From: Alphaproteobacteria bacterium
Lineage (GTDB): Bacteria > Pseudomonadota > Alphaproteobacteria > CBCXTS01
Length of the DNA: 64,000 bases
Assembly (NCBI GenBank): GCA_965178085.1
Contig: CBCXTS010000026.1
Coordinates: 90,205-154,204 of the forward strand
Direction: 5' to 3'
Part shown: in pieces, positions 32,691 to 44,000 of the stretch
Numbering within the stretch: the first letter of the stretch is position 1
Layout: every line of letters starts with the position of its first letter
The notes under the pieces: model-generated
The model's database searches: none
What the model was told of the DNA's origin: nothing
What the model saw: only the letters and a program-made list of their open reading frames with translations
Position numbers and translations under genes: made by a program

Positions 32691-32808
32691 ATCTATTACT
32701 ATGATATAAACGCATATCATGGTTAGCTAATAATCATTTGCAGATATTTGCAAGTGATGTGTTTTGCAAGGATCAATTTTGTTGAGCCCTCACGTTGAGT
32801 TAAGACCT

Positions 32809-34278
32809 TTATTCATTGATATTACCTAATGCGTATCCACGTGCGTGCACAGTACGAATGGGGTTGTTTTGTCCTGCAATATTGAGATGAGCTCGTAATC
32901 GCTTGATGTGGACATCAATAGTACGCTCACCTACATGCACGTTTTGTCCCCATATGTTTTGGAGAATATCACTGCGTGATAAAACCTTGTTTGGGTGTGT
33001 CATGAAAAGATGGAGTATTTCAAAATCACGATGCGATAAATGCAATTCTTTGCGTCCACGCCCAGCACGCTGACTGGTAATGTCAATCCATAAATCATCA
33101 TAGACTATGCGTTCATTGATGGTGTTAGATGATAAGGATGGGTTAGGTTGTATGATGGTAGGGTTAGTGTTTTTTCGGATAAAAACACCTATTTTTGCAA
33201 GTAACTCTTTGCTAGAAAACGGTTGTACAATAAAATCATCGACATCGTTATTAAAAGCCGCAATTCGGATGTCCTCGTCATCATGATTGCTAATTGCTAT
33301 AATGGTTATATCTGTTTTTGAGATATTGCTATAAATTGTTGTCACGAGTTCTGTTGGGGCAATGTTTTCACTCGTCCAGTTAATCATAATAAGGTCGGGT
33401 TGATTGCGCATTAAAGCGACAATTGCTGTGGTTGCATTATTAGTAACAGTTACGCTATAGCCAGCTTGTGTTAAGGTGTTTTTTAACAGTTGAGTTTGCA
33501 TGGGGTCATCATCGCAGATTAAAAGATGTTTGTCTAATAGTGCAATGGGGGTAGTTGCTTTTTGAGTAGCTTTTGTGTTTGGCTGATCATTGCCTATATT
33601 TTTAGCAAAATCGCGCGGCGGATATACACCATCTTGAATAAAAAAGGTGTGCTCTGCAATGTTTTTAATATGATCACCTATGCGTTCTAAATTTTTAGAA
33701 ACAGTGATAAGCTGTACAATATACTCAGATTTAATACCCCCTTTACGCAATTGTGCTAAGAAATGATTGAGGATGTCATGGAAGGCGCTATCAACATCTA
33801 GATCATTGGCAATTAAAAGTTTGGCAATATCAGTATCGCCAGTTAAATATGCTTGACTAGCTTTGTTTAAAGCGCTTTCAGTCATATTGCCTAAATTGGC
33901 AATTTGTGAAGCTAACGCGCCGTCGATGTTACTTTCAGAGAGTGACAGAACAGTTTTAGCTATAGATTTAGCCTTATCTGCTATTCGCTCTAAATCAACA
34001 CCAACTTTTACAGCGGTTAAAAGAAATCGTAAATCATTGGCCATAGGTTGGCGCAAAGCAATGATGTTGATAATATCATTATCGATTTCTGTTTCAAGTC
34101 TATTGGCGTTTATATCTTGCTTCCGGGTGTATTCTGCAAGCTCTAGATCGTTGTTTTTTAGTGCATTTAAAGAATCTTTAAGTTGCTTTTCTGCTTGTTG
34201 AAATAATTGTCCAATTTTTTTACGTAGTTCGGCTAAATCTTTATCAAAAGCTTGAACGATGTGCTTGCTTTGTTGCAT
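32809..34278 (-). CDS. PhoU-PhoB fusion: PhoU domain + degenerate receiver domain + OmpR/PhoB winged-helix DNA-binding domain
   Basis: aa 1-~220 PhoU (RQPMANDLR, DLERIAD, LERIGDHIKNIAE); aa 251-~367 receiver with D53->N300 and K105->Q352; C-terminal SR..IL..IWG...ERTIDVHIKRLR...IRTV..RGY; single uninterrupted ORF with SD AGAGGA. Confidence 0.9.
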   Translation of the reverse strand: MQQSKHIVQAFDKDLAELRKKIGQLFQQAEKQLKDSLNALKNNDLELAEYTRKQDINANRLETEIDNDIINIIALRQPMANDLRFLLTAVKVGVDLERIADKAKSIAKTVLSLSESNIDGALASQIANLGNMTESALNKASQAYLTGDTDIAKLLIANDLDVDSAFHDILNHFLAQLRKGGIKSEYIVQLITVSKNLERIGDHIKNIAEHTFFIQDGVYPPRDFAKNIGNDQPNTKATQKATTPIALLDKHLLICDDDPMQTQLLKNTLTQAGYSVTVTNNATTAIVALMRNQPDLIMINWTSENIAPTELVTTIYSNISKTDITIIAISNHDDEDIRIAAFNNDVDDFIVQPFSSKELLAKIGVFIRKNTNPTIIQPNPSLSSNTINERIVYDDLWIDITSQRAGRGRKELHLSHRDFEILHLFMTHPNKVLSRSDILQNIWGQNVHVGERTIDVHIKRLRAHLNIAGQNNPIRTVHARGYALGNINE

Positions 34279-34335
34279 AATATATCCTCTTTAGCTTTCT
34301 TTTATCATATAATATGGATTAAGTTGAGAACTTTT

Positions 34336-34353
34336 ATGACAAGATAATGACGT
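34336..34353 (-). promoter_or_regulatory. Pho-box-like direct repeat upstream of the phoU-phoB fusion
   Basis: Minus strand ACGTCAT-TATC-TTGTCAT, 11-bp period, resembles CTGTCAT-N4-CTGTCAT. Confidence 0.6.
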
Positions 34354-34384
34354 ATAAGTTAAGCTTCCCCAAGGGTGGGCATGA

Positions 34385-35149
34385 TTAACCAAATCTGCCA
34401 GTAATATAGCCAGTGGTTCGTTCATCGCTTGGATTTGTTAACATCATATTGGTAGGGCCTATTTCAACCAAAGAGCCTAAATGGAAAAAAGCTGTTTGCT
34501 GTGATACACGCCCTGCTTGCTGCATTGAATGGGTAACAATGACAATCGTGTATTTTTGTTGTAATTCATTAATTAAATCTTCAATGCGTGCGGTTGCAAT
34601 AGGATCAAGAGCAGAGCAAGGCTCATCCATTAAAATGATATCAGGCGATACTGCAATTGTACGTGCAATACATAATCGCTGCTGTTGGCCGCCTGAAAGG
34701 CTAGTCCCTGGTTGGTTGAGGCAATCTTTAACCTCATTCCATAAACTGGCCCGTTGAAGACTTTTTTCAACGATTTCATCTAATTCATATTTTGTTGATG
34801 CCATAGAATGAATTCTAGGGCCGTAAGCTACATTGTCATAAATTGACTTTGGAAAAGGGTTAGGTTTTTGAAAGACCATTCCAATGCGTGTACGCAAATC
34901 AACAACATCTGTTTGCTGATCGAGCACATTTTGGCCATTAATTTCAATGAGTCCTTCTGTACGGCAACCAGCAATCGTATCATTCATACGGTTAATGCAT
35001 CGAAGGAAGGTTGATTTTCCACATCCACTTGGGCCAATTAGTGCAGTGACTTGGTTGCTAGCTATTTGCAAAGAAACATCATACAAGGCCTGCTTGTTGT
35101 CGTAAAATACATTGACCTTATGTGTGTTGATTTTAATAGAATGTTGCAT
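34385..35149 (-). CDS. pstB: Phosphate ABC transporter ATP-binding protein
   Basis: [42 protein letters not shown]. Confidence 0.97.
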
Positions 35150-35199: not shown

Positions 35200-36468
35200 C
35201 TACCATGTGCGCTCTGTTTTTTTACGTAATATTGCAGCTGCTAAATTCATCACAATTAAAAACACTAATAATACAATAATAGCACCAGCAGTTTTTTCTA
35301 CAAAACCTCGCTCTGGATTATCTGCCCATAAAAAAATTTGAACTGGTAATGCGCTAGAAGCATCGGTAGGTAACAATGAAGGCTCAAGAATAAAAGCTAC
35401 CATGCCGATCATAAGCAAAGGAGCTGTTTCGCCCAAAGCTTGCGCCATGCCAATGATGGTACCAGTTAATGTGCCTGGCAAGGCAAGCGGTATAACGTGA
35501 TGCATCACTGTTTGTGTATGACTTGCGCCTAATCCAAGGGCAGCCTCACGAATGGATGAAGGAACTGCTTTTATTGCTGCGCGTGCAGCAATAATAATGG
35601 TTGGCAAGGTCATTAATGTTAATACAAACGCACCTGTTATTGGCGCAGAGCGTGGCATATTGAAGATATTTAAAAACAACGATAAACCTAATAATCCAAA
35701 AACAATAGATGGTACTGCAGCTAAGTTGTTAATATTGATTTCGATGATATTGGACCAACGTCCTGGCTTAGCGTATTCTTCTAAATAAATAGCGCTAAAT
35801 ACTCCCAAAGGAAATGACAATAAAAATGTTATTGAGAGCATCCAAAAAGAGCCTACAAGGCCTCCCCATATGCCAGCTAACTCAGGTAAACGAGAATCAC
35901 CGTTGGTAAAAAAGCTCCAATTAAATTTAGTAATGAGCTTTTGTTGCGTGATTAAGTCATTAATCCATGTAATCTGAAGATCATTTAAGGGGCGTAGCTC
36001 TTCAGCAACGTTGCTTGACAAGATACCTTTCATCAAAAGATCTACATTGCTGGATGCAGGTAGTAAAACATTAACACGCGTGCCAATGAGCTCAGGGCTT
36101 TTAAGTACGATATTTTTTAATTCATACCCTGCACCAGAAGATATCAATCTTGTAGCAAGTTTTTTATCACGGCGTCCTGTAGCGTTTGGGATGCTATTAT
36201 AGATTGCTTTTTTTACAATGCCTTGCCAGTTAATTTGATGAGCTTGTTGGCGGGTTAAGGGCAAAGGTATTTGCTCAAGATTAACCTCAATGCGCATTTC
36301 AGTGCGCATAAAACTACTAGCACCTTCAGTAAAGATTGCAATGAGTAATATTGCCAAAAGACTTAATGAAAAGATAATAGCTGCAAGCCCACTTGCACGG
36401 AAAACTTTTTCAAACAAATGGCGTTTGCGAAGTTTTTTGAAGGTATTGGATGATTGATGATGGGCCAT
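35200..36468 (-). CDS. pstA: Phosphate ABC transporter permease PstA
   Basis: YLEEY, NLAAVPSIVFGLLG, REAA..LGA, GETAPL. Confidence 0.95.
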   Translation of the reverse strand: MAHHQSSNTFKKLRKRHLFEKVFRASGLAAIIFSLSLLAILLIAIFTEGASSFMRTEMRIEVNLEQIPLPLTRQQAHQINWQGIVKKAIYNSIPNATGRRDKKLATRLISSGAGYELKNIVLKSPELIGTRVNVLLPASSNVDLLMKGILSSNVAEELRPLNDLQITWINDLITQQKLITKFNWSFFTNGDSRLPELAGIWGGLVGSFWMLSITFLLSFPLGVFSAIYLEEYAKPGRWSNIIEININNLAAVPSIVFGLLGLSLFLNIFNMPRSAPITGAFVLTLMTLPTIIIAARAAIKAVPSSIREAALGLGASHTQTVMHHVIPLALPGTLTGTIIGMAQALGETAPLLMIGMVAFILEPSLLPTDASSALPVQIFLWADNPERGFVEKTAGAIIVLLVFLIVMNLAAAILRKKTERTW

Positions 36469-36490: not shown

Positions 36491-37867
36491 CTATTCATAT
36501 ATTTCGCGGTATTTGCGCACGATGCGCAATGCAAATATATTTAAGCCTAATGTGATGATAAAAAGTGTCATACCAAGGGCAAAAGCCGATAGTGTTTTAA
36601 CGCTATCAAACTCATGATCTCCTACAAGTAATGTCACAATTTGTACTGTTACAGTGGTGACTGCTTCAAACGGGTTAGCAGTAAGATTGGCAGCTAACCC
36701 GGCTGCCATGACAACAATCATGGTTTCACCTATGGCACGGCTTAGCGCTAACATTAATGCTCCTACAATCCCTGGTAAGGCCGCTGGAATAAGCACTTTC
36801 AAAATTGTTTCGCTATGGGTGGCACCAAGTGCTAAAGAGCCGTCACGCAATGCTAAAGGAACAGCCGATATAACGTCTTCTGAAAGCGATGAAATAAATG
36901 GTATCAACATTACTCCCATCACTAGGCCAGCAGCTAAAGCGCTTTCGGTTGATGCAGGGATATCAAATGCAACAGCAAAATCTCTTACCATTGGTCCAAA
37001 TTGCAGTGCTGCAATAAAGCCATATACAACTGTTGGTATGCCTGCCAGTATCTCTAAGGTAGGTTTGACCCAATTGCGGATTTGTGGGGTGGCAAATTGT
37101 GATAAATAAATTGCCGACATAAGCCCAACTGGTACCGCCATGAATAATGCAATGGTAGCAACCATAGCAGTGCCAGCAAAAACCGGAACAGCACCAAATG
37201 CGCCTGAAGAACCGACTTGGTCTTGGCGGATGGCAATTTGTGGAGACCATTGCAAGCCAAATAGAAAATCAAAGGCAGAATATAAACTAAAGAATCGAAA
37301 ACATTCTCCAATGAGCGTTAAAATGATGGCAATGGTTGTAAGGACTGCCGCTGATGCAGCAATGATTAAAATGATCAACCAAACACGCTCTAAAGCAATA
37401 CGAGTTTGAGATTGTAAATTGATTTGCTTAAGCTTTATCAAGCCTAGTATTGTTGCTATTGCAATGATAAATAAGGATGTAGCAAAGGTAAAATGGTAAT
37501 CGAGGTAGTGGTAATGCTTCGCAGCTTTTATTAAAGCAGGATTATCAAGCAAGGAGTAGTTTTGTGTAGCAATGGCTTGTTCTATTGTTGATATGAGAAA
37601 TGAAGTAGCTTGCACGGCAGGCTCTGAATCTGTCTCAAGGGCAAAACTTTCTAAGACAATCCATTCTATCAAAGGATAATGGAATAGGCTTAATAAGCTA
37701 AAAATTATAAAGCTAGGCAACGCACACCAAATAGCAACAAGCCAACCATAATGTGATGAGGGTGTACGATTTCGTGTGTTTTTTAAAGAACGTTGTTGTG
37801 TTATTTTTCGATAGGATAAATAAAAAAACAAACAAGATAGAAGAATGATGACGCCAGTGGTTGCCAT
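36491..37867 (-). CDS. pstC: Phosphate ABC transporter permease PstC
   Basis: KP.LEILAGIPTVVYG, LALSRAIGETMIV. Confidence 0.95.
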   Translation of the reverse strand: MATTGVIILLSCLFFYLSYRKITQQRSLKNTRNRTPSSHYGWLVAIWCALPSFIIFSLLSLFHYPLIEWIVLESFALETDSEPAVQATSFLISTIEQAIATQNYSLLDNPALIKAAKHYHYLDYHFTFATSLFIIAIATILGLIKLKQINLQSQTRIALERVWLIILIIAASAAVLTTIAIILTLIGECFRFFSLYSAFDFLFGLQWSPQIAIRQDQVGSSGAFGAVPVFAGTAMVATIALFMAVPVGLMSAIYLSQFATPQIRNWVKPTLEILAGIPTVVYGFIAALQFGPMVRDFAVAFDIPASTESALAAGLVMGVMLIPFISSLSEDVISAVPLALRDGSLALGATHSETILKVLIPAALPGIVGALMLALSRAIGETMIVVMAAGLAANLTANPFEAVTTVTVQIVTLLVGDHEFDSVKTLSAFALGMTLFIITLGLNIFALRIVRKYREIYE

Positions 37868-37924: not shown

Positions 37925-38950
37925 TTAAAGAGCTTCAACATGATTACGCAATTTTAGTAAAGCTGCTTCTTCAAGTGGGATAAGACCAGCGTCTAATAAA
38001 TAACCATCTTCATCAATTGCTCGGTTGGAAATAAATTCAAGTACAAATTCTTTCAAACCACGTATTTCATGAATATGGGCTGTTTTAACATAGAAAAACA
38101 AAGGCCGAGCAATAGGATAGCTTTTATCTAGAATGTTTTCAAAAGTGGGCTTAGCACCTTCAATAATTGATCCTTGAATGATGTCAAAATTTTGTTCAAG
38201 AAAAGAAAAACCAAAAATTCCTAATAAATTTGTATCAGCTTTTAATTTTTGTACGATAAGGTTATCATTTTCTCCTGCTTCAATAAAAGAGCCGTCTTCG
38301 CGTAAAGTATTGGCATGTTCTTTAAAGATTTTTGGGTCTGACTTTTCAAGCAATGCCAAGCTCTTAATACTGTGAGCCCCTGCTTCCATTACTAATTCTA
38401 AAAATGCATCGCGTGTTCCTGATGTTGGTGGCGGGCCTAGAACTTTAATTGGAATGTTTGGAAGGTCAGGATTAATTTGGCGCCATTTTTTATATGGATT
38501 AAGGATAAAATTGCCATGTTCATCAGGCAATTTTTTTGCAAGTGCCATATAAATTTCTTTAAGTTGAAGCTTGATTGGATCCTTGGCACGCGATGAGCCG
38601 ATAACGATGCCATCAAAACCTATCTGTATTTCTTCGAAAGTGACATTGTTTTTTTTGCATTTTTCAATTTCACCGCTTTTAATGGCACGAGAAGCGTTAT
38701 TAATATCGGCATATTGTGTGCCTACGCCAGCACAAAAAAGTTTAAAACCTCCTCCTGTGCCAGTAGTTTCAATAACAGGGCTTTTATAATCGCTTGATTT
38801 TGCAAAATTTTCAGCCACAATTGCAGAAAAAGGATACACCGTAGAAGAACCAACGATACGGATTTGATCACGCGCTTGGGCAGTATGATACATACCAAGG
38901 TATAACGTAATCGCTAGTGTAATAGAAACGAAGCTAAAGAAGTTTTTCAT
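37925..38950 (-). CDS. pstS: Phosphate ABC transporter substrate-binding protein
   Basis: Signal peptide; GSSTVYPF, GTGGG, NASR, GPPPTSGTRD, YPIARPLF. Confidence 0.94.
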   Translation of the reverse strand: MKNFFSFVSITLAITLYLGMYHTAQARDQIRIVGSSTVYPFSAIVAENFAKSSDYKSPVIETTGTGGGFKLFCAGVGTQYADINNASRAIKSGEIEKCKKNNVTFEEIQIGFDGIVIGSSRAKDPIKLQLKEIYMALAKKLPDEHGNFILNPYKKWRQINPDLPNIPIKVLGPPPTSGTRDAFLELVMEAGAHSIKSLALLEKSDPKIFKEHANTLREDGSFIEAGENDNLIVQKLKADTNLLGIFGFSFLEQNFDIIQGSIIEGAKPTFENILDKSYPIARPLFFYVKTAHIHEIRGLKEFVLEFISNRAIDEDGYLLDAGLIPLEEAALLKLRNHVEAL

Positions 38951-38980: not shown

Positions 38981-39021
38981 AAAATGTTTAAACATAGATC
39001 GAAAATGTTTAAACATAGATC
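38981..39021. repeat. 20-bp direct repeat (21-bp period), each copy containing the perfect palindrome ATGTTTAAACAT
   Basis: AAAATGTTTAAACATAGATC at 38981-39000 and 39002-39021. Confidence 0.92.
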
Positions 39022-39023
39022 AG

Positions 39024-39052
39024 TTGTAATAAAAGTGACATAAAAATGAAAT
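39024..39052 (-). promoter_or_regulatory. Pho-box-like repeats upstream of pstS
   Basis: Minus strand ATTTCAT-TTTT-ATGTCAC-TTTT-ATTACAA with 11-bp period. Confidence 0.5.
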
Positions 39053-39593: not shown

Positions 39594-39938
39594 ATGAGAA
39601 AATTAACAACCCATGTGCTAGATACGATGCATGGTAAGCCTGCAGCTAATTTACGCATATGCTTGTTGAATGAAGTTGATGACTTGCTTAAAGATGTATT
39701 GACGAACATAGATGGTAGGCTAGACCAGCCGCTTTTACAAGGAAATGCAATGATAGCAGGAACTTATAGGATTGTGTTTCATGTAGGTGATTATTATAAA
39801 GGGATGCTCATCAAATCGACAAAGCCTCTTTTCCTTAATAAAATTCCAGTAGAATTTGGCATTGATATGGATCATGACCATTATCATGTACCGTTACTTG
39901 TTTCTCCTTATGGTTATTCAACATATAGGGGATCGTAA
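39594..39938 (+). CDS. uraH: 5-hydroxyisourate hydrolase (transthyretin-like)
   Basis: LTTHVLD, DGR, HYHVPLL.SPYGYSTYRGS. Confidence 0.96.
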   Translation: MRKLTTHVLDTMHGKPAANLRICLLNEVDDLLKDVLTNIDGRLDQPLLQGNAMIAGTYRIVFHVGDYYKGMLIKSTKPLFLNKIPVEFGIDMDHDHYHVPLLVSPYGYSTYRGS

Positions 39939-40075
39939 TGGGTAGAAAGAACAAGATTTTTTAAAATATAAAGGTTTTAACAAAAAAGTAGTAATTCATT
40001 ATATTGCGTTGATAGACATCAACAGTAGTATGGATGGCAGGCAAAATAAATACCATAAAAATGAAGTAGTAAACG

Positions 40076-41680
40076 ATGCAGACGCAGATTATTTTTGCAC
40101 AATTTAAACAAGATTATCTTGCACCGCGATATGATGAAGGTCCAAACCAAGATCATGCTGACGATGACATCCTTGACATCATACGCTTCAATGACTTGCC
40201 CCATGATACAACTATCTTGAATTATCTGCGTGAATACAAACAACTAAAAGGCACAAAAGAAGGTTGCGGCGAGGGAGATTGTGGAGCGTGTACGGTAATA
40301 GTTTTGTCTCTTCAAGATAATCAACTTTGTTGGCAAGCCGTTAATAGTTGTATTTTATTGGTTGGTCAATTGCATGGTAAAATTTTGATTACGATTGAAG
40401 ATTTGTCAAAGCTTGTTCGTTTAGAAGACTTATCACTGCATCCGATACAATCTGCTATGGTAAAACATCATGGGTCACAATGTGGGTTTTGTACCCCTGG
40501 AATTGTAATGAGCTTGGCAGCATATTATCATGAATATGGGCATGCTACTCGTGATGGATTTGATGAGCAATTATCGGGCAATCTTTGTCGTTGTACGGGC
40601 TACAACCCGATCCTTAAAGCAGCAAAAGATGCATTTGAAAATGCACCAAATAAACGCCTTGCACCAAGATTGCAAAACGCATTGATGCAATGTTTGAGCA
40701 ATTTGCACCAAGGTGATGATGATTTATTTATCGATCAAACCCCAAGAAATGTCGACCCAGCAAATATCCACTTAGCAAATGCCCCTCAAACAAATGCTCT
40801 TGAAGAAGACATGCATTGCATCAAAGATAGTAAGCGGTTTTTTGCTGGTCCTTGTACCTTATCAAGCTTATTAGAATTATATCAATACCATCCAGATAGC
40901 GTATTGTTAAGTGGTGGAACAGATATAGGTTTATGGATTACAAAGCAATTGCGTGATTTGCCAAAAATAATATGGATTGGGCGCATTCAAGAACTTTCTA
41001 CTATTGAAGATAAAGGCGATTATGTTGATTTTGGTGCAGCTGTAACTTATGCAAATGCACAGCGTATTTTAGACACTATCCATCCATCTTTGGGAATATT
41101 GGTTAAGCGCATAGGTGGAGCGCAAATACGCTCTTATGGCACAATAGGGGGAAATATAGCCAACGGCTCTCCCATAGCTGATATGTCGCCAGCACTTATA
41201 GCGCTTGGCTGCACAATACGCTTGACATCAAATGCTAGTACGCGTGATCTAGATTTAGAAGATTTTTTTATCGAATATGCAAAACAAGACATCAATATTG
41301 GTGAAATTGTTGAGCGTGTTTTTATTGATAAACTTATATCAAAAGATCAACATTTTAGGGTATGGAAATTGTCCAAACGGCGCGATCAGGACATTGCAAC
41401 ATTGACGGGTGCCTTCAAGTTAAAACTTGATAAAAATTATATCATGCAAGCGCGTGTTGCTTTTGGTGGAATGGCAGCTACGCCTAAACGAGCATTGGCA
41501 TGTGAACGCGCTTTAATCGGGATAGATATTACTAAACCCAAGAATTGGCAAGCATCAATGATAGCATTGGAAAATGACTTTACACCGATTGATGACATGC
41601 GCTCAAATAAAGAATATCGTACACATGCTAGTCAAAATTTATTGCACAAATGTTTGATGGAAATATCAGCCAATGCATAA
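40076..41680 (+). CDS. xdhA: Xanthine dehydrogenase small (Fe-S/FAD) subunit
   Basis: GTKEGCGEGDCGACTV, QCGFCTPG, GNLCRCTGY, GGTD, TIGGNIANGSP. Confidence 0.94.
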   Translation: MQTQIIFAQFKQDYLAPRYDEGPNQDHADDDILDIIRFNDLPHDTTILNYLREYKQLKGTKEGCGEGDCGACTVIVLSLQDNQLCWQAVNSCILLVGQLHGKILITIEDLSKLVRLEDLSLHPIQSAMVKHHGSQCGFCTPGIVMSLAAYYHEYGHATRDGFDEQLSGNLCRCTGYNPILKAAKDAFENAPNKRLAPRLQNALMQCLSNLHQGDDDLFIDQTPRNVDPANIHLANAPQTNALEEDMHCIKDSKRFFAGPCTLSSLLELYQYHPDSVLLSGGTDIGLWITKQLRDLPKIIWIGRIQELSTIEDKGDYVDFGAAVTYANAQRILDTIHPSLGILVKRIGGAQIRSYGTIGGNIANGSPIADMSPALIALGCTIRLTSNASTRDLDLEDFFIEYAKQDINIGEIVERVFIDKLISKDQHFRVWKLSKRRDQDIATLTGAFKLKLDKNYIMQARVAFGGMAATPKRALACERALIGIDITKPKNWQASMIALENDFTPIDDMRSNKEYRTHASQNLLHKCLMEISANA

Positions 41681-44000
41681 AGCATCCAAGGACAATCATA
41701 ATCTAAGAGCAGATATTACTGGCTTTGGGTTGCCACATGATAGTGCACAAAAACATGTAACGGGTCTAGCATGTTATATTGATGATATTGAAACATCCCA
41801 AAACTGCATTCATTTAGCACCTTTTTATAGTAAAGCAACTTGCGGGACGATTAAGTCTATCGATCTTCAAGAAGCAATGAAACAAGAAGGCGTTGTTGAT
41901 ATTTTGCTAGCAAATGCGATACCTGGGGTCAATGATTGTAGTCCTTCAATAGGTGGAGATCCTATTTTAGCAGATGGAGAAATTTTGTTTCATGGGCAAG
42001 TAGTGGGTGTGGTGCTAGCAAAGTCACATTTACATGCAAGGCGTGCAGCGCGTTATGTACAAATTGTCATGGATAAAGCTGTTAAACCTCCTGCTGTTAC
42101 GATCGAAGAGGGGGTTGAGTCTCTTGAAGATATTTTACCACCTTATCGTTTTGAAAGAGGAGATGTAGATGGTGCATTGACTAATGCTACAAAGCAATTT
42201 TCAAGCAGCATGCGCGTTGGTGGGCAAGAGCATTTTTATCTTGAAGGACAAGTAGCACTTGCTATGCCTAAAGAAGATGGCAATATTTTGGTGTATTCTT
42301 CTACCCAGCACCCAGATGGAAATCAAAGAACCATAGCAGCGATGTTGAACCTGCCAATGGCTGCTGTTATTTGTGAATGCCGTCGAATGGGAGGCGCTTT
42401 TGGTGGTAAAGAATCACAATCATTTCAGTGGAGCTGTTTAGCAGCACTTGCAGCATATAAAACCGGTAGGATGGCAAAACTGCGCCTTGATCGTGATGAT
42501 GATATGATGATGACAGGCAAGCGGCATGATTTTAGGATTGATTATCGTGTATGCTACGATCATCAAGGTAAAATTGAAGCTGTATGTGCAGAGCTTTTAG
42601 GGCGTTGTGGATATTCGTTAGATCTATCTCAAGGTGTTATAGATCGGGCAATGTTTCATGCTGACAATGCTTATTTTTATCCGCAATTGAGAATTAGCTC
42701 AAGATTTGTGCGCACAAATACTGTCTCTAACACGGCCTTTAGAGGTTTTGGTGGCCCACAAGGTGTGATGTTGGCTGAACGGTTGATGGATAGCATTGCT
42801 ATTTTAGAAAACCAAGATCCTCTTGATATACGCTTGCGCAATTTATATGGTCCAAAGGGTGATGTTACACCATATGGCATGAAAGTGCGAGATCGTTTTG
42901 CTAAGCAGCTGATTTGTCAATTGGCCCAAGATTGCCACTATCGAAAGCGCCGCCAAGAAATTGGTGTTTTTAATTCTACCAGTCAAACGATGCTGCGCGG
43001 GATAGCGTTAACGCCTGTTAAATTTGGTATTAGCTTTACGTTAAAAAAACTCAATCAAGCTAGTGCTTTAGTGCATGTTTTTTCCGATGGTTCTATCGAA
43101 GTCAATCACGGTGGAACTGAGATGGGGCAGGGGTTGCATACAAAAATCATGCAAATTGTAGCGGATGTTTTTGGGGTTAAGGTTAGTTGTGTGCATATTG
43201 GCGCTACGCGTACAGATAAAGTAGCAAATGCTGCTCCTACTGCGGCCTCATCTGGTTTTGATTTAAACGGGATGGTTGCACAGCAAGCTGCAAAAGCTAT
43301 TTGTGCCAGATTGGCTAATTTGATGAGTAAATTATATCAAACAGATATTAAAAATATCAGTTTTAAAAATGGCATGGTTTACGCTGGAAAAAAAGCCATA
43401 CCATTTGCAGATTTAACGCTGCAAGCTGTGATGGATCGAGTTAGTTTGAGCCAAACGGCACATTATGCAACGCCTAAGATAACTTGGGAGCGCGATAAGG
43501 TAAAAGGGAGACCCTTTTTATATTTTGCATGGGGCGCTGCTGTTAGTGAGGTGCTTATTGATCGTTTAACTGGAGAGGTGTCGGTTGAACAGGTTGATAT
43601 TTTGCACGATGTAGGGTGCTCGGTTAATCCGGCTATTGATATTGGACAAATAGAAGGCGGGTTTGTGCAAGGGCAAGGCTGGTTAACAACTGAAGAACTT
43701 GTATATCATAATACAGGGCAGTTGTTGACACATGCACCATCTACTTATAAAATTCCAACATCGGCAGATATAGCAAAAAAATTTAATGTAAGGCTATGGG
43801 ATAAAAACTTTAACACAGAACCTGTTATATATCGTTCTAAGGCAGTTGGGGAGCCACCGTTAATGCTAGCTATATCTGTCTTTTCTGCTATTACGCATGC
43901 AATAGCAAGCTTGCAACCTAGAAAAGTACCCGTTCTTGATTCACCAGCAACACCGCATGCTATTTTAAGTGCTATCAATAGCCAGTTGGAAAAGCGTTAA
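41673..44000 (+). CDS. xdhB: Xanthine dehydrogenase molybdopterin-binding subunit
   Basis: QEHFYLE, RMGGAFGGKE, AFRGFGGPQG, GGTEMGQG, SKAVGEPP. Confidence 0.96.
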   Translation: MHKASKDNHNLRADITGFGLPHDSAQKHVTGLACYIDDIETSQNCIHLAPFYSKATCGTIKSIDLQEAMKQEGVVDILLANAIPGVNDCSPSIGGDPILADGEILFHGQVVGVVLAKSHLHARRAARYVQIVMDKAVKPPAVTIEEGVESLEDILPPYRFERGDVDGALTNATKQFSSSMRVGGQEHFYLEGQVALAMPKEDGNILVYSSTQHPDGNQRTIAAMLNLPMAAVICECRRMGGAFGGKESQSFQWSCLAALAAYKTGRMAKLRLDRDDDMMMTGKRHDFRIDYRVCYDHQGKIEAVCAELLGRCGYSLDLSQGVIDRAMFHADNAYFYPQLRISSRFVRTNTVSNTAFRGFGGPQGVMLAERLMDSIAILENQDPLDIRLRNLYGPKGDVTPYGMKVRDRFAKQLICQLAQDCHYRKRRQEIGVFNSTSQTMLRGIALTPVKFGISFTLKKLNQASALVHVFSDGSIEVNHGGTEMGQGLHTKIMQIVADVFGVKVSCVHIGATRTDKVANAAPTAASSGFDLNGMVAQQAAKAICARLANLMSKLYQTDIKNISFKNGMVYAGKKAIPFADLTLQAVMDRVSLSQTAHYATPKITWERDKVKGRPFLYFAWGAAVSEVLIDRLTGEVSVEQVDILHDVGCSVNPAIDIGQIEGGFVQGQGWLTTEELVYHNTGQLLTHAPSTYKIPTSADIAKKFNVRLWDKNFNTEPVIYRSKAVGEPPLMLAISVFSAITHAIASLQPRKVPVLDSPATPHAILSAINSQLEKR

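Follow-up and report, generated by a model that had tools for sequence, protein, structure and literature searches.

A phoU-phoB fusion gene closing a pst operon

The canonical Pho system joins the phosphate transporter PstSCAB to PhoU, the kinase PhoR and the response regulator PhoB, encoded in alphaproteobacteria in the order phoR ... pstCAB-phoUB, and what PhoU senses and how its signal is passed on is a long-standing open point in phosphate signalling. In the Escherichia coli model, as presented in passages of PMC4423584, PhoU links PstB to PhoR: it contacts PstB and, via A147/R148, the PhoR PAS domain, and the two contacts are separable. In Caulobacter and Sinorhizobium a signalling role of PhoU has itself been called into question, and passages of PMC11208175 present PhoU in these bacteria as a probable restraint on PstSCAB that would detect cytoplasmic phosphate by a direct or an indirect route. 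Here we describe a phoU-phoB fusion gene in a 64,000-nucleotide stretch of DNA (the window) on contig 26 of genome G000 (2.47 Mb in 27 contigs, 38% G+C, 98.75% complete). The gene closes a pst operon that we call alphaproteobacterial-type on the basis of its gene order and its named best matches (Rhodobacterales, Devosia, Hyphomicrobiales). The fusion, the loss of the phosphorylation site and the failure to find PhoR in the genome together suggest that phosphate control probably runs through one protein instead of through a kinase relay.

The locus has much in common with the canonical system, including the same operon position after pstB, a full PhoU-family half, a winged helix that is most like the PhoB DNA-binding domain, and the phoU-phoB order seen in relatives. 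It differs in that the two components form one polypeptide, PhoR was not found, the acceptor Asp and the catalytic Lys of the receiver are lost, the PhoB score is below the family cut-off, and the ordinary PhoU motif LTYMMEDPR gives way to a stretch containing GGI(K/D)S.

Regulators of the OmpR/PhoB family that work without phosphorylation are known from Chlamydia (ChxR, PMC3960148) and Helicobacter (HP1043/HsrA, PMC8345958), and the likeness to these lies in a receiver fold with catalytic loss, no cognate kinase, a small genome and a retained winged helix. They are two-domain proteins with no added sensor, whereas here a complete N-terminal PhoU supplies a plausible input. The name PhoU has no occurrence in the main text of either of two surveys of pseudo-receivers and aspartate-less receivers (PMC12632262 and PMC4395418). 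A PhoU and a DNA-binding domain do share one polypeptide in archaeal SpoVT/AbrB-PhoU proteins such as TK2245 of T. kodakarensis (listed in PMC7325993), although their DNA-binding fold is a different one, they have no receiver, and they are not PhoB-derived. No paper on a natural PhoU-PhoB fusion was found in literature searches aimed at it, which covered few subscription journals. The joining of PhoU to a pseudo-receiver regulator together with kinase loss is a new variation on kinds that were already known. Idle or active transporters can also sequester transcription factors, MalT being bound by MalK, an ABC ATPase, and Mlc being bound by PtsG. The logic we propose is shared with these, in that a transporter component would control the availability of a transcription factor, but MalT-MalK and Mlc-PtsG are pairs of separate, reversibly binding proteins, whereas here adaptor and factor make up a single polypeptide and PstB binding is a proposal.

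We refer to the fusion protein of the window as P0001 and to its fused relatives as P0002 and P0003/P0328 (for coordinates see Table 1). An earlier note on this DNA, made from the sequence alone, had described a single uninterrupted 489-codon open reading frame (ORF) closing the pst operon, and this holds at exact coordinates, on the minus strand that the note left unstated. The gene is the last of the operon pstS-pstC-pstA-pstB, all on the same strand, and lies directly downstream of pstB (pstB boundary 34385, fusion start 34278) with a spacer of 106 bp. The pstB product is itself 62-73% identical to ten PstB proteins from other genomes, each of which is encoded upstream of phoU.

Pfam places two stretches of PhoU (PF01895, E 6.6e-39), a Response_reg domain (PF00072, residues 253-363, E 5.6e-16) and a Trans_reg_C domain (PF00486, residues 410-484, E 1.2e-22) in P0001. 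The NCBIfam model phoU_full (TIGR02135) matches residues 9-217 with 181.3 bits, above its equivalog cut-off of 130.25, and the closest solved homologue of this half is PhoU of P. aeruginosa (4q25; E 3.7e-29, residues 5-217). All seven columns that are invariant in an alignment of 91 sequences are kept (P78, D82, R98, D101, D159, R199 and D202), bearing out the earlier description of a full PhoU with its acidic motifs. At residues 165-190 (window positions 33700-33790) ordinary PhoU carries the motif (F/L)RELLTYMMEDPR / LTYMMEDPR, which is kept from Pseudomonas to alphaproteobacteria; in 3/3 fused proteins (F/L)RELLTYMMEDPR is replaced by the clade-specific stretch containing GGI(K/D)S. The positions equivalent to A147/R148 were considered as a marker of PhoR contact and set aside as non-discriminating, being L/T in P0001 and L/D in ordinary alphaproteobacterial PhoU.

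The closest solved match of the winged helix is the DNA-binding domain of E. coli PhoB (1gxp, E 1.1e-21), and W443, R452, T453, D455, R460, R462, T476, G481 and Y482 match residues found in at least 50 of 53 PhoB proteins. W443, G444 and V449 match the PhoB consensus and presumably align to the PhoB loop that contacts sigma-70; the assignment of the conserved winged-helix residues to DNA or sigma-70 contact is one that we take over from the PhoB literature. The polar linker and the WG...ERTIDVHIKRLR motif that had been reported earlier are both present in the translation. PhoB (TIGR02154) is the top response-regulator model for the C-terminal half, with 177.7 bits against a cut-off of 296.2, and in relatives the best match to this half is the phoB gene adjoining phoU. 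Because these best matches are phoB genes beside phoU, the C-terminal half is, judged from sequence, a descendant of PhoB.

Receiver degeneracy and the search for PhoR

When aligned to 1b00, the receiver of E. coli PhoB, P0001 has Asn300 at the position of the acceptor D53, Gln352 at K105 and Ser330 at T83, and the acidic residues after beta-1 are retained (D256-D258). In 53 unfused PhoB proteins the same columns hold D in 48/53, K in 51/53, and T in 42/53 or S in 8/53, such that Ser330 is acceptable at the Thr/Ser position. We have good confidence that the P0001 receiver is not phosphorylated at the canonical site. The P0002 receiver (T,D,Q / Asp / Ser / Glu) is degenerate at catalytic positions other than those of P0001, and that of P0328 is without the acidic pair and has Gly at the acceptor position.

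Within the clade, identity is 54-58% for PhoU, 34-56% for the winged helix, 19-36% for the receiver and 0-19% for the linkers, making the receiver the least conserved of the three domains. The loss is unevenly spread, as between P0001 and P0002 the alpha4-beta5-alpha5 region is identical at 21/38 positions (55%) and the phosphorylation-pocket part at 21/81. OmpR/PhoB regulators are described in passages of PMC12632262 as dimerising through the alpha4-beta5-alpha5 face. In atypical regulators, too, the receiver is better preserved in this region than elsewhere. The pattern of conservation fits a receiver that is retained as a structural or dimerisation module with phosphotransfer abandoned. The second linker of P0001 (residues 371-391) exceeds that of ordinary PhoB by about 17 residues (alignment A6).

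The receiver and PhoB-type winged helix of the earlier note are thus present as domains (PF00072, PF00486), but the C-terminal half does not qualify as an orthodox PhoB. The class of atypical OmpR/PhoB-family regulators with a pseudo-receiver suits it better, because it falls short on the family cut-off, on the acceptor Asp and Lys, and on the partner kinase. It has what characterises the atypical class, namely a recognisable receiver lacking the phosphotransfer residues, with no kinase gene adjoining the operon and PhoR not found. It also has what characterises one-component regulators, a sensor-type domain joined to a DNA-binding output without a phosphorelay, as seen in the architecture and the absent acceptor Asp.

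In the whole genome there are only three matches to HisKA and, with the one in the fusion counted, four receiver domains. One kinase is EnvZ-like by NCBIfam (213.8 bits over its full length) and adjoins an OmpR-like regulator; the second (763 aa) is followed by a receiver-containing ORF, the pair being NtrY/NtrX-like by eye and unscanned; and the third, of 489 aa on contig 25, has a weak HisKA match and is unclassified. The best match to the PhoR model TIGR02966 in G000 scores 91 bits, compared with 200-339 bits in about 27 of 40 same-class genomes, where the high-scoring PhoR is usually encoded a few kb from phoU-phoB. When a genuine alphaproteobacterial PhoR was used as the query, its sole match in G000, at 51 bits, was to the EnvZ-like kinase and was confined to the catalytic core. 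We say that PhoR was not found, rather than that it is proven absent, because the assembly is 98.75% complete and in 27 contigs.

PhoX, PhoD and the PitA/PHO4 family were likewise not found in the G000 genome, so that no phosphate importer besides Pst was recognised, and the Pho regulon may extend hardly beyond the pst operon. None of the scanned regulators comes near the cut-off of the CtrA model, and the sparse signalling inventory for 2.47 Mb, on contigs C18, C21, C25 and C26, suggests a host-associated or otherwise reduced lifestyle. Near-identical C-terminal HATPase-type kinase-like segments with no obvious membrane segments were seen on two further contigs (C11:669-1676 and C20:21273-21587), and these are possibly a repeated or collapsed gene family.

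The fused clade and sporadic fusions

Relatives of P0001 were sought by a word-indexed search of 5.8 billion clusters and by an exhaustive HMMER scan of 1.84 billion representatives. P0002 (481 aa), with 44% identity across 99% of the query, has the same full-length fused architecture; P0003 is partial (46% identity) and has a complete cluster mate, P0328 (489 aa), the pair being 45-46% identical to P0001. In the HMMER scan only two non-query sequences scored at E<1e-70, and the next, at about 1e-34, were unfused PhoB or PhoU. A junction motif, GxYPPR, at the PhoU end is common to all three fused proteins, and the NCBI label of the fused relatives is 'phosphate signaling complex protein PhoU'. 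The accession numbers of P0002 and P0003 lie about 2200 apart, and the two may share one assembly, which would make them either two paralogous fusions or members of a mixed bin. Further members of the clade were not found among 18 genome-contig loci, in which the four full-span matches (L036, L037, L039, L041) are separate genes, nor among six metagenome-contig loci (0/6 fused).

The junction itself shows no trace of a separate phoB start. From residue 205 to residue 259 the reading frame lacks any ATG, GTG or TTG, the sequence before the linker has no Shine-Dalgarno-like (purine-rich) run, and both alternative frames have 2-3 stops each within 41 codons around the linker, so that a frameshift error could not have made the open junction. 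The arrangement that the earlier note had held would undo the fusion, a stop in the linker followed by a separate phoB start, was not seen, as the closest relatives are fused too and the linker has no start. A Logan assembly of run X1 gives one contig at depth 6.67 that is identical over 32700-34400 with 0 differences, and a search of sequencing runs found this stretch in one DNA run alone. The earlier concern over a stop or indel at 33500-33680 is eased to the extent that a second assembler yields the identical sequence; X1 is probably the source sample and not independent, and the Logan contig therefore checks the assembler and not the data. The C-terminal half also departs from ordinary PhoB in ways not expected of a recent accident. 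Taken together, these observations make it very likely that the fusion is real and expressed as one protein, and comparison of the sequences indicates that it is an evolutionarily maintained joining of adjacent phoU and phoB genes, not an assembly accident.

How unusual this is can be judged from genomes of the same class. The 40 relatives compared are related to G000 at class level only, and in most of them phoU and phoB are adjacent and separate, in the same order; apparent spans in two (G030 and G014) have stops between phoU and phoB. A further 400 same-class genomes gave 26 one-frame matches spanning both halves, each with at least one stop (1-2), and an uninterrupted fusion in 0/400, leaving G000 as the only genome with one. 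In those 26/400 genomes (loci L065-L075 and others) a single substitution would fuse phoU and phoB. Such same-frame adjacency probably explains many singleton 'fused' proteins in the databases.

Proteins with all three domains do occur elsewhere in databases. The search for PhoU, Response_reg and Trans_reg_C together that the earlier note had proposed was carried out with P0004 as query, and 58 of the 120 best rows carry all three. These sporadic proteins (P0004, P0209-P0327, P0366) are at most 32% identical to P0001, and in the 58 fusions the receiver is canonical for Asp (58/58), for Lys (58/58) and for Thr (57/58). Nearly all are singletons, and unfused 247-aa PhoB proteins at 94-96% identity form clusters of 88 and 1324. 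In nine of the 58, frameshifts have removed the second PhoU motif; many have junctions rich in Arg, Pro, Gly and His, as in out-of-frame translation of G+C-rich DNA; and many junctions keep the PhoB initiator Met (read from the sequences, uncounted). We read the 58, from these sequence features, as apparent stop-loss events or assembly artefacts. Matches in the ESM Atlas, restricted to clusters of at least 50 members, were REC plus Trans_reg_C in 30/30 cases and included PhoU in none, which is a weak negative. The earlier proposal of a one-component regulator thus gains from conservation in the clade, from the loss of receiver residues and from PhoR not being found, and its bare architecture is not unique.

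Other fusions with degenerate receivers are P0007 and P0329, both from Pirellulales, and P0395. In the Pirellulales pair (52% identity) PhoU is joined to an OmpR-family regulator, of which an unfused 258-aa homologue exists (P0331), and Pirellulales may be a second lineage pairing PhoU with a kinase-independent PhoB-like factor.

Proposed control, competing explanations and the surrounding locus

On balance we favour, by a modest degree, a regulator that works without a kinase and whose PhoB DNA-binding domain is under the control of PhoU. The mechanism, for which we infer the contact with PstB, the way the signal runs, dimerisation, the targets on DNA and a role as activator or repressor, would be as follows. 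The intact PhoU module would read the state of PstSCAB through PstB, the cytoplasmic phosphate or metal state, or both, and its signal would pass directly to the tethered PhoB-type winged helix. One option is that high phosphate holds the fusion protein at the transporter, by sequestration at PstB; another is that PhoU gates dimerisation, for which the pseudo-receiver would use its conserved alpha4-beta5-alpha5 face. Membrane sequestration and PhoU-driven dimerisation had both been suggested in the earlier note. Once free or dimeric, the protein would bind Pho-box-like repeats and activate the pst operon, including its own gene. More tentatively, and falling somewhat short of an even chance, a transporter-coupled one-component system may have replaced the two-component system altogether, with PhoU as the sensor, PhoR dispensable and lost, and the receiver decayed to a dimerisation scaffold. 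Complex prediction with two copies of PstB and the PhoU module (residues 1-228) scored 0.55, 0.01 and 0.01 in three runs and counts neither way.

Several points weigh against a kinase-independent, PhoU-controlled regulator. The support for a regulatory role is at the level of sequence, in an uncultured organism; the fused clade consists of three sequences only, all from uncultured assemblies; coverage of the window is low (about 6.7); and no RNA runs holding the stretch were listed in the sequencing-run search. The loss of phosphorylation is not uniform, since P0002 retains the Asp, and the search for PhoR within the clade covers the genome of P0001. Scanned with a Pho-box consensus (18 nt, 14 specified positions), the genome has 178 sites at 11/14 or better and none above 12/14, and hence no canonical Pho box; with that many sites the repeat in the pstB-fusion spacer is weak evidence and the regulon is undefinable from the scan. 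Both pst-associated sites (Table 1) are weak and poorly spaced relative to -10-like hexamers. Finally, the PhoU half may mainly brake Pst transport, with its coupling to DNA binding weak or absent, because PhoU of Caulobacter and Sinorhizobium is described, in the excerpted account, as a brake and not a relay.

Of the competing explanations, one keeps a single-protein switch and changes its wiring, making the fusion a phosphate-responsive repressor or a purely ligand-sensing factor, with a metal or phosphate cluster in PhoU, that never touches PstB and acts as a soluble one-component regulator. PhoU domains are known fused to other DNA-binding domains, the invariant acidic residues of the PhoU motifs are all kept, and the Pho-box-like sites are badly placed for activation, all of which would suit such a protein. 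We give it a low probability, though the present data are compatible with both it and the PstB-coupled regulator. Against it, the gene stands directly after pstB, as phoU always does, and the residues of the presumed sigma-70-contact loop match the PhoB consensus.

No better placed is an explanation in which the C-terminal half is left as a remnant without function, with the protein serving only as a PhoU brake on PstSCAB transport and pst being constitutive or otherwise controlled. Some 260 extra codons are open in P0001 and also in the other two clade members, and because stops arise easily at 38% G+C this argues against a remnant, as do the near-invariant PhoB winged-helix positions that are kept, including the recognition-helix arginines, the 34-56% identity of this domain within the clade and the 55% identity of the alpha4-beta5-alpha5 face. 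That several reduced same-class genomes (G005, G012, G024) keep PhoU without PhoB- or PhoR-level matches points the other way, together with the decaying receiver, the little regulon left when PhoX, PhoD and PitA are not found, and the lack of convincing Pho boxes among the scanned sites; we consider a remnant unlikely.

Kinase control could also persist, with a remaining histidine kinase, a small-molecule phosphodonor or a Ser/Thr kinase modifying another residue and PhoU modulating the outcome. P0002 keeps its Asp, P0001 keeps three acidic residues and a Ser at the Thr position, and the genome offers two orphans, the contig-25 kinase and an OmpR-family regulator. Set against these are Asn300 at the acceptor position, Gln352 or Glu in place of Lys in the two full-length members for which this column can be aligned, the Gly and missing acidic pair of P0328, and the pairing with, or typing as, other systems of the kinases present, such that we regard this as very unlikely. 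An artefact of assembly, sequencing or gene calling, or a very recent stop loss, with separate PhoU and PhoB in the cell, can appeal to the frequency of pseudo-fusions, their lost PhoU motifs and Arg/Pro/Gly-rich junctions, the one-frame phoU/phoB pairs and the low coverage, but is the least probable of all, given two relatives at 44-46% identity with the same fusion and junction motif, a degenerate receiver where the sporadic fusions are canonical for Asp and Lys, a linker with no vestigial phoB start or ribosome-binding site and closed alternative frames, and an identical second assembly.

The kinase-independent regulator that we prefer bears on how PhoU works. With PhoU joined to an output domain, PhoR not found and the phosphorylation site dead, the kinase would be taken out of the problem and any phosphate response should come through PhoU, so the fusion lets the question of PhoU signalling be addressed with one protein and PstB. 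It also illustrates how fusion of neighbouring genes can turn a two-component pathway into a one-component regulator, and adds an input domain to the possible controls of pseudo-receiver regulators. If PhoU is itself the sensor and the two-component system has been replaced altogether, the fusion protein is a natural minimal Pho switch, one that would show that PhoU can transmit the phosphate signal without a kinase.

Table 1. Positions of the features discussed, in window coordinates, with the basis or main property of each
Feature	Position	Strand	Remarks
phoU-phoB fusion gene	32809..34278	minus	ORF of 489 codons plus stop, without internal stop; Pfam/NCBIfam
PhoU module	33613..34278	minus	aa 1-222; two PF01895 stretches, TIGR02135
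Linker	33532..33612	minus	aa 223-249 (27 residues); 5-18% identity in clade
Degenerate receiver (pseudo-receiver)	33169..33531	minus	aa 250-370; PF00072
Asn300 codon	33379-33381	minus	within receiver
Gln352 codon	33223-33225	minus	within receiver
Extended receiver-to-DNA-binding-domain linker	33106..33168	minus	aa 371-391
PhoB-type winged-helix DNA-binding domain	32812..33105	minus	aa 392-489; PF00486
pstB, ABC ATPase	34385..35149	minus	254 aa
pstA-like permease	35200..36468	minus	422-aa ORF
pstC-like permease	36491..37867	minus	458 aa; named by position and translation, unscanned
pstS-like periplasmic phosphate-binding protein	37925..38950	minus	341 aa; first gene of the operon
Pho-box-like direct repeat ACGTCATTATCTTGTCAT	34336..34353	minus	pstB-fusion spacer; 11/14 positions of the Pho-box consensus
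Pho-box-like half-site pair TTTCATTTTTATGTCA	39036..39051	minus	86-101 nt upstream of pstS start; 10/14 positions
Hairpin, possible terminator	32733..32758	listed on plus	between the convergent fusion gene and upstream SDR-like gene; pattern scan

The name pstS-like is given from the position upstream of pstC/A/B and a reading of the translation, without a family-library scan, and the C-terminal part of the pstA product resembles a PstA fragment of relative G030 (locus L010). The hairpin beyond the end of the fusion gene could also act on the minus strand.

Upstream of pstS, the half-site pair TTTCATTTTTATGTCA has one mismatch to TGTCA-N6-TGTCA, and a scan of the window for similar pairs gave 6 matches where 4.76 are expected, which is not significant. 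The stretch from this site to the ribosome-binding site of pstS includes two exact tandem copies of a 20-nt sequence, GATCTATGTTTAAACATTTT, repeated at a period of 21 (38981-39021, minus strand); the sequence contains the palindrome TGTTTAAACA. As a candidate shared operator GATCTATGTTTAAACATTTT was rejected, there being no other copy in the genome at two or fewer mismatches. Divergent from pstS on the plus strand (39594-44000) are, by eye, a 5-hydroxyisourate hydrolase-like ORF (114 aa) and ORFs of 534 and 775 aa resembling the two subunits of a molybdoenzyme of the xanthine dehydrogenase type; so named, and unscanned, these ORFs would form a purine catabolism cluster beside the phosphate operon.

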